A stretch of 6,368 nt of DNA from a virus (Duplodnaviria > Heunggongvirae > Uroviricota > Caudoviricetes): positions 1 to 6,368 of the IMG/VR virus record IMGVR_UViG_2695420564_000005; one strand, 5' to 3'. The notes beneath the pieces were generated by a model that was not told the origin of the DNA, searched no databases, and worked only from the letters and a program-made list of their open reading frames with translations. The translations under genes and the position numbers were made by a program. This document shows positions 2,383 to 4,233 of this stretch, one piece after another (position 1 is the stretch's first letter; each line of letters begins with the position of its first letter).

Positions 2383-4233
2383 ATGTTGATTAAACATTAT
2401 GATGTTGTCAGGGCGGCGTCGCCGTCAGACCTTGCGGAAAAGCTGACACACAAACTGAAAGAGGGCTGGCAGCCGTTTGGTAGTCCGGTGGCCATAACCC
2501 CTTATACCCTGATGCAGGCGATTACAGCAGAAGGTGATGTGGTGGTCAGTGGTGCAACTGAGCCGGATTGGTACTACGTCATCGTACTGGCCGGGCAGTC
2601 CAATGCCATGGCTTACGGTGAAGGGCTTCCGCTGCCGGATTCATACGATGCTCCGGATCCGCGCATTAAACAGCTGGCGCGCCGCAGTACAGTGACGCCG
2701 GGCGGGACTGCCTGCAGATATAACGATATTATTCCGGCCGACCACTGCCTGCATGATGTGCAGGATATGAGTACGCTGAATCATCCGAAGGCAGACCTGA
2801 GCAAAGGGCAGTACGGCTGTGTCGGCCAGGGTTTACATATTGCCAAAAAACTGCTCCCGTATATCCCGAATAACGCGGGGATCCTGCTGGTACCATGCTG
2901 TCGTGGTGGTTCGGCATTCACCCAGGGCGCGGAGGGGACATTCAGTGCGGACACGGGGGCCAGCCAGGATTCGGCACGCTGGGGTGTGGGTAAACCGTTA
3001 TATCAGGACCTGATTGCGCGCACTAAAGCTGCATTACAGAAGAACCCGAAAAATGTGTTGCTGGCGGTGTGCTGGATGCAGGGAGAGTTTGACATGAGCG
3101 CCGCCACCCACGCACAGCAACCTGCGCTGTTTACAGCCATGCTGACACAGTTTCGTGCTGACCTCTCCGTGTTTAACGCGCAGTGCCATGGTGGCAGTGC
3201 TGCAGATGTGCCGTGGATTTGTGGTGACACGACGTATTACTGGAAAAATACATACGCTACCCAGTACGACACCGTGTACGGCGGGTATAAAAACAGGGAG
3301 AGTGAGGGCGTTTATTTTGTGCCCTTCATGACAGACGGTAACGGCGTCAATACCGCCACTAACGCGCCGGCAGAAGATCCGGATATTCCGGCATCAGGAT
3401 ATTACGGTGCGGCATCGAGAACGAATGGAAACCAGGTATCATCAAACCGCCCGACACATTTCAGTTCATGGGCGCGCAGGAGCATTATTCCGGATCGTCT
3501 GGCAACCGCTATTCTGAACGCAGCCGGGCGCACCTCCGCCTTCATCAGTGGTAAGGCACCGGAAATTAAACCCTCGCCCGGCGGCAACACGCCATCGGGT
3601 CCGTCTGCAGATACGTCCGTTCGCACAATCTCCCTGCTGCCGGCAGCCGGAGAGGCTGCTGCGCAGGGCTGGAGCATTAAGGATGGCGGAATTCAGTTGT
3701 CAGATGGTGTATTTAAGATCACCAAGCAGAGCAATAAAACCTGGTCCCTGACGCATCCGGTGGATGACGCAATTACCCTGCTGACACAGGGCGGCAGACT
3801 GACCTGTAAGTTCCGCCTGTCAGGCGCACTGACCAACAATCAGTTCGGGCTGGGGATTTATCTGTATACGGATGCTCCCGTTCCTGATGGTGTGGCGATG
3901 ACAGGTACCGGTAATCCGTTCCTGATGTCGTACTTCACTCAGACCACTGACGGCAGAGTGAATCTGATGCATCACAGGAAAGCCGGAAACACGAAGCTGG
4001 GGGAGTTCGGCGATTACGGTAACGACTGGCAGACGCTGGAGCTGGTGTTCACCGCCGGCAGTGCCACGGTTACTCCGAAACTGAATGGAGTGGCTGGCCC
4101 GGCATTCCAGGTCATAAAAGACAGTCTGACACTGGGGCTGAATGCACTGACGCTGACGGATGTTACAAAAAATGCAGCGTATGGCGTTGAGATAGAAAGT
4201 CTGGTGCTGGAGATAAATGCACCCGCAGCATAA
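2383..4233 (+). CDS. nanS-p: Prophage-encoded sialate O-acetylesterase (NanS-p-like; N-terminal DUF1737-like region plus SGNH/SASA esterase domain plus C-terminal beta-rich domain), about 616 aa if it starts at ATG 2383
   Basis: ATG at 2383 preceded by GGGAGA at 2371-2376. N-terminus [21 protein letters not shown]..., esterase motif [16 protein letters not shown] (GQSN serine block), tandem stops TAATAA at 4231-4236. The true start is uncertain because the reading frame is open back to 1732. Confidence 0.75.

Follow-up and report, generated by a model that had tools for sequence, protein, structure and literature searches.

By its sequence, the gene at bases 2383-4233 of the DNA analysed here (6,368 nucleotides; the window) is an ordinary, intact nanS-p of the known phage sialic-acid esterase family; its setting is best explained, with considerable confidence, as a normal nanS-p in a lambdoid late block that was blunt-joined to unlinked fragments by formation of a chimera. 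The window is read in the order thiC' / setC-yicL' / AAA / nanS-p-S-ydfR-R-ant' / 'lptE, i.e., four unlinked genome pieces and three joins, designated A (133/134), B (2348-2352, yicL'/phage) and C (6285/6286, ant'/'lptE). An earlier note had regarded the gene as an esterase retained in a toxin-less prophage remnant; the nature of the enzyme was borne out, and the remnant was not. Coordinates of the features are collected in Table 1.

Table 1. Features of the window in order of position; L001-L007 are phage loci carrying the identical esterase gene, L009 is a host locus.
Feature	Bases	Strand	Evidence or remark
thiC internal fragment, left foreign piece	1-133	+	Pfam ThiC_Rad_SAM on ORF 23-166
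Chromosomal piece assigned to E. albertii	134-2348	+	setC upstream region, setC, intergenic region, yicL'; Pfam EamA, MFS_1
setC	273-1457	+	within the E. albertii piece
yicL', first 200 codons, seven TM-like segments	1747-2348	+	Pfam EamA; hydropathy
AAA filler	2349-2351	.	matches neither parent when compared base by base with L009 (host) and L001 (phage)
Native nanS-p leader	2352-2382	+	identical to L001-L007 from 2352; Shine-Dalgarno-like GGGAGA
nanS-p, 616 aa	2383-4233	+	ATG at 2383, stop ends at 4233; Pfam and structure matches
DUF1737 domain of nanS-p (aa 4-50)	2392-2532	+	Pfam, E = 2.8e-15
SASA/SGNH esterase domain of nanS-p (aa 59-379)	2557-3519	+	Pfam SASA, E = 2.2e-12
Lectin-like C-terminal DUF6645 domain of nanS-p (aa 421-613)	3643-4221	+	Pfam DUF6645, E = 6.9e-18
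Second terminator-like hairpin with T-run	4241-4270	-	consensus scan only
Intrinsic-terminator-like hairpin with T-run, nanS-p/holin gap	4444-4470	+	consensus scan only
Holin S, class II (P21-type), 68 aa	4526-4732	+	Pfam Phage_holin_2_1, E = 1.2e-32
YdfR/DUF1327, 114 aa	4737-5081	+	Pfam DUF1327, E = 1.2e-45; annotated as YdfR family in E. coli and YYZ-2008
Lysozyme R, 177 aa	5132-5665	+	Pfam Phage_lysozyme, E = 3e-24
ant', first 115 codons of antirepressor gene	5939-6285	+	alignment to L001 13557-14252 stops at 6285
lptE 3' fragment (codons ca. 158-185), right foreign piece	6286-6368	+	82-84% identity to E. coli lptE from 6283

The 616-aa product contained a SASA (sialic-acid-specific acetylesterase) domain (Pfam); in the comparison with solved structures, aa 59-379 matched E. 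coli NanS/YjhS (3PT5; E = 1.4e-121) and aa 421-613 matched the C-terminal domain of phi24B NanS-p (6YP6; E = 8.7e-30). A survey of SGNH active sites gives the blocks of 3PT5 as GQSNA, RGGSAF, MQGEFD and R-x-SHFS (PMC10792757). In the window protein, GQSNA contains Ser73 (bases 2599-2601), RGGSAF and MQGEFD occupy aa 174-179 and aa 232-237, and block V, RPTHFS(S), contains His359 (bases 3457-3459); catalytic blocks I, II and III and the block V histidine are all present, and the four blocks were invariant when the protein was aligned with the esterases of 933W and YYZ-2008. The NanS-p family is characterised by DUF1737 and a lectin-like C-terminal domain around the esterase (PMC10462455), and both were found to flank the catalytic domain here. 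Pfam domains, the matches to 3PT5 and 6YP6 and the catalytic blocks agree with the earlier assignment to NanS-p-type esterases; the GQSN serine block, which had been called intact, is so (Ser73 present, all four blocks undisrupted in the alignment). With regard to location, the 3' neighbours (S, ydfR, R, ant) are seen in the window, phage DNA on the 5' side ends at 2352, and Q upstream was seen in seven loci with the identical gene. The occurrence of nanS-p in Stx and non-Stx lambdoid prophages is already well described, and the present allele has 100% identical public copies; the exact 616-aa protein was found on at least 11 public contigs (exact-protein look-up).

The closest esterases in the phage database were those of Stx1a phages (Stx1a_EH2115; 99.4% identity to the window NanS-p) and of YYZ-2008 (gp42; 98.7%). 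Like the window protein, these Stx1-phage enzymes consist of 616 aa with the same three domains, and Stx1 phages have the same genes downstream (holin, YdfR, lysozyme, Ant). Upstream, stx1AB and a small ORF directly precede the esterase in Stx1 phages, whereas phage DNA in the window reaches no further than 31 nt upstream of the ATG; where loci carry the 100% identical protein, the place of stx is taken by a methyltransferase, TerB and DUF3927. The statement of the earlier note that the esterase of Stx phages lies just downstream of stx agrees with the gene order of YYZ-2008 (stx1AB, small ORF, esterase) and likewise of 933W. The NanS-p of 933W (z1466 / ST933Wp42), the biochemically characterised prototype, corresponds to the window protein in domain architecture, in gene position and in a highly conserved catalytic domain (GQSN, RGGSAF, MQGEFD, HFSS); it differs in length (645 vs 616 aa), in a longer linker between DUF1737 and the esterase and in a divergent C-terminal domain, overall identity being 52-56%. 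Chromosomal NanS (YjhS, 3PT5) shares the SGNH/SASA core over 321 residues and the same Ser/His blocks, both proteins being without the block V Asp; unlike window NanS-p, it has neither DUF1737 nor the lectin-like domain. Chromosomal NanS is periplasmic and carries its own export signal; NanS-p, in contrast, has no signal peptide. In phi24B gp84 (vb_24B_21), the C-terminal jelly-roll is homologous and the DUF1737 N-terminus is the same; gp84 is reported to undergo processing and to decorate the capsid of a podovirus (T=9), a role that would be tentative for the window allele and its head type.

The absence of stx and Q from the window, given in the earlier note, was confirmed from the ORF list and Pfam. 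The phage block (2352-6285) matched seven phage loci from base 2352, and the match ended at 6285 in the five loci that reach so far; compared with the loci carrying the identical esterase, the block was 99.9% identical (2-3 substitutions, no gaps, 3934 nt). Upstream of the esterase, the seven loci contain Q, two reverse ORFs, a small ORF, an N6/N4 methyltransferase, TerB and DUF3927 (the DUF3927 call is missing in L007, the other upstream genes being present); downstream, holin, YdfR, lysozyme, Ant, Rz, TonB_C, HNH, terminase, portal and protease-capsid follow in all loci that are long enough. No stx was found in any of the seven loci, which look like full stx-less lambdoid prophages. Since the identical gene resides in such prophages, the absence of stx is a property of the phage lineage; nanS-p in non-Stx prophages has already been reported (PMC10462455). 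The interval from Q to nanS-p (5349-9685 in L001; also in L002-L006) holds reverse ORFs of 182 and 308 aa without Pfam match; it is the interval in which Stx phages hold stx. The two hairpins of Table 1 are strong ones, placed within the 290 nt that separate nanS-p from the holin gene; in the absence of antitermination by Q, the esterase would be uncoupled by them from the lysis genes.

The stx-less lineage was seen on contigs probably from E. albertii, with relatives of 97-98.6% identity in E. coli. The identical allele was observed in prophage contigs of the same assembly series as the E. albertii loci (e.g., JASWDT, JASWDS). In the open-access literature searched, no mention of nanS-p together with E. 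albertii was found; the association of this allele with E. albertii may be undescribed, though it is unsurprising.

The host pieces were delimited in the same way. Over bases 1-134 identity to an E. coli thiC was complete (100%), and similarity collapsed beyond 134. The piece 134-2348 aligned with nine E. albertii loci without gaps at 99.5-99.96% identity, the limits being exactly 134 and 2348 in 9/9; for SetC of the window, identity was 99% with the E. albertii type strain NBRC 107761 and did not exceed 90% with any other species representative, and identity of yicL' to E. coli yicL was only 82.8%. By these identities the setC-yicL' piece is that of Escherichia albertii. None of the nine E. 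albertii loci has a broken yicL; the gene is intact (300 aa) in each and continues past the point of the break. Upstream of setC, 7/8 of the E. albertii loci that reach there share sequence, and L008 has a transposase gene instead. With host and phage loci alike, similarity beyond the segment limits fell at once to the random level. At the right-hand side, join C cuts ant, which codes for 231 aa in intact phages; 'lptE, cut at about codon 157 of 193, is out of frame with ant', and the hybrid frame is open to the end of the window (5939-6368). On the E. coli chromosome thiC, setC-yicL and lptE are far apart, and lptE is an essential gene.

The thiC piece is 100% E. coli-like, and yicL and lptE show ca. 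83% identity to E. coli; this hint of mixed-species origin suggests that the pieces do not all stem from one genome and that a cross-species chimera may be present. The window has private SNPs, e.g., 4146A, synonymous in nanS-p; it therefore does not simply duplicate the compared loci and represents real sequence data of a distinct strain.

Two further regions of the E. albertii loci were recorded. In L015, a 543-aa protein with RVT_1 reverse-transcriptase and TIR domains is encoded at 5517-7148 upstream of setC; the gene adjoins a P4-like satellite module (AlpA, Ash, primase) and is defence-gene-like. A variable island downstream of yicS (about 13200-21185) is present in L008-L011 and L015 and absent from L012-L014; among its genes are some resembling those of a type III secretion translocon (SseC-like, T3SS_TC, TPR chaperone, Trans_reg_C regulator), together with an invasin/intimin-like gene of very large size.

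Each of the three joins is abrupt, the partners overlapping by 0-3 nt; a repeat search gave no direct or inverted repeats, IS ends, target duplications or homology at any of them. Each of 5,426 complete E. coli genomes (5,426/5,426) matched parts of the window, and none covered 80% of it or more. Oligomers spanning join B were absent from species-representative genomes, IMG/VR and JGI metagenome contigs, those spanning join C from IMG/VR viral contigs and JGI metagenome contigs, and those spanning join A from IMG/VR viral contigs; the AAA filler taken as a phage variant (AAATAACTCTG...) had no match in viral contigs. Fusion proteins of 833 and 828 aa gave no record in the exact protein look-up. 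When 5.8 billion protein clusters were queried with 120 aa spanning the junction, the matches listed were YicL-only or DUF1737-only proteins, and EamA and DUF1737 occurred together in 0 of the 120 matches listed out of 224. An Rfam scan of the window gave nothing, and a tRNA scan found none. Prophage integration into yicL was considered and rejected: neither an attachment site nor an int end is seen at the phage border, and beyond the far end of the block lies lptE instead of the remainder of yicL. IS-mediated rearrangement was likewise rejected, no IS sequence being present.

The context of the gene is most likely a chimeric sequence, and the joins are probably artefactual. Three homology-free joins connecting four unlinked loci within 6.4 kb, none of them found in the collections searched, make a chimera the best explanation; possible sources would be blunt fragment ligation in library preparation, misassembly or other deliberate or accidental concatenation. 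Besides the private SNPs, some points speak against this: illegitimate recombination in vivo can likewise produce blunt joins that lack homology and contain a few filler bases, and an in-frame yicL-nanS-p join right after a TM segment is what selection could yield, although the chance of it is ca. 1 in 6.

At join B, phage DNA begins 31 nt ahead of the nanS-p start codon and is in frame with the truncated yicL. The frame is open upstream of 2383 as far as 1732, giving an ORF (1732-4233) of 833 aa with the EamA domain first; the 200 codons of yicL' are in frame with nanS-p, the native phage leader being translated as a linker of 12 residues between the two. YicL' keeps its seven TM-like segments, the break falling right after the seventh (hydropathy). 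In EamA transporters, which have 10 TM segments, both termini are inside the cell; an esterase attached after the seventh segment would accordingly come to lie in the periplasm. If the joins were real, illegitimate recombination in one E. albertii strain would have put the 3.9-kb late fragment behind codon 200 of yicL, an event that we hold to be improbable; it is equally improbable that YicL'(7 TM)-NanS-p is expressed from the host yicL promoter with the esterase in the periplasm, the site of chromosomal NanS. The hairpin at 4444-4470 could then stop yicL-driven transcription before the lysis genes, and the native Shine-Dalgarno sequence and ATG 2383 would also permit a free cytoplasmic form. 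The uninterrupted ORF, the position of the break at the end of the seventh of ten TM segments, GGGAGA before 2383, the terminator-like hairpin between nanS-p and S and the 3-nt filler, as in end-joining, are all consistent with such an event. Nevertheless, it accounts for one of the three blunt joins in 6.4 kb, the others linking thiC and the essential lptE, and the fusion is missing from all collections searched; the mixed similarity of thiC, yicL and lptE to E. coli also speaks against it. Moreover, the nanS-p leader is read through in a public protein as well (P0010) and is naturally open in the yicL frame, so that chance alone would put one such join in three in frame. A genuine in vivo fusion, in which a host promoter and a seven-helix anchor export the phage esterase domain to the periplasm without induction or lysis, is accordingly rated very unlikely.

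Still less likely is a decayed toxin-less remnant whose nanS-p and lysis genes were kept by selection for growth on O-acetylated sialic acids. The intact nanS-p and the lack of both stx and Q in the window accord with it, as does the literature: a review reports that all seven NanS-p enzymes of EDL933 and five from O104:H4 de-O-acetylate Neu5,9Ac2 and mucin sialic acids and thereby let lysogens grow on Neu5,9Ac2 (PMC8065619). The block itself tells against decay, with 2-3 substitutions relative to full-looking prophages, no gaps in 3934 nt and all internal ORFs intact. Nor does phage DNA lie between contiguous stretches of host DNA: the left neighbour is codon 200 of yicL and the right one 'lptE, unlinked gene fragments in place of an attachment site or syntenic host DNA, and a third non-syntenic join lies at 133/134; all three are blunt and absent from the collections searched, and yicL is uninterrupted in the nine related E. 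albertii loci. The earlier proposal that the esterase was selectively retained as a moron after loss of stx finds no support in the stx-less prophages, in which the identical gene is accompanied by Q, the methyltransferase, TerB and DUF3927; as the same gene is found in complete stx-less prophages, nothing need have been lost. The appearance of a remnant stems solely from the blunt joining of the 3.9-kb block to thiC', setC-yicL' and 'lptE, and a single instance cannot test selection. For the context of the gene, a chimera is the likeliest reading.

As to the function of the protein, the SGNH/SASA serine esterase would strip O-acetyl groups from sialic acids by means of the Ser73/His359 pair, the lectin-like C-terminal domain being the putative sugar-binding part; from homology to the assayed NanS and NanS-p enzymes, we infer that the window NanS-p would de-O-acetylate Neu5,9Ac2 and mucin sialic acids. 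nanS-p is co-transcribed with phage late genes (review PMC8065619), and in intact phages the nanS-p block is read from the Q-dependent late promoter as part of the late transcript (PMC8065619; 933W annotation). The earlier note had considered release of the enzyme through the adjacent lysis genes; this stands as one reading among others and is weakened as the sole account of the family as metabolic morons released by lysis, because the phi24B homologue gp84 is reported to be an abundant virion protein (cryo-EM and proteomics) that is proteolytically processed and decorates the capsid, its DUF1737 forming hexamers on the hexons (2026 bioRxiv preprint).

It is conceivable, if somewhat doubtful, that NanS-p serves above all as a part of the virion, and less as a moron of benefit to the lysogen, whatever its genomic context; likewise tentatively, DUF1737 would dock on hexons so that the esterase and lectin-like domains meet sialoglycans or O-acetylated surface sugars. 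Besides the location of gp84 in phi24B virions, conservation of DUF1737 in the window protein and co-transcription with late genes favour this possibility. However, phi24B is a short-tailed T=9 phage, and the head module of the prophages carrying the window allele is of another kind (protease-capsid fusion), for which reason transfer of the phi24B result to this allele is uncertain; the linker between DUF1737 and the esterase is, in addition, unlike that of the 933W type, and a growth benefit for the lysogen is experimentally supported (PMC8065619). Both roles can coexist.

The useful result is a negative one: as the gene stands in a patchwork of probably non-biological origin, this toxin-less 'remnant' is no evidence that a moron was selectively retained. 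Only with a verified yicL join would something new emerge, a phage esterase domesticated through its fusion with a membrane transporter; if the fusion were genuine, it would constitute a new route from a phage late gene to a constitutive host metabolic enzyme.
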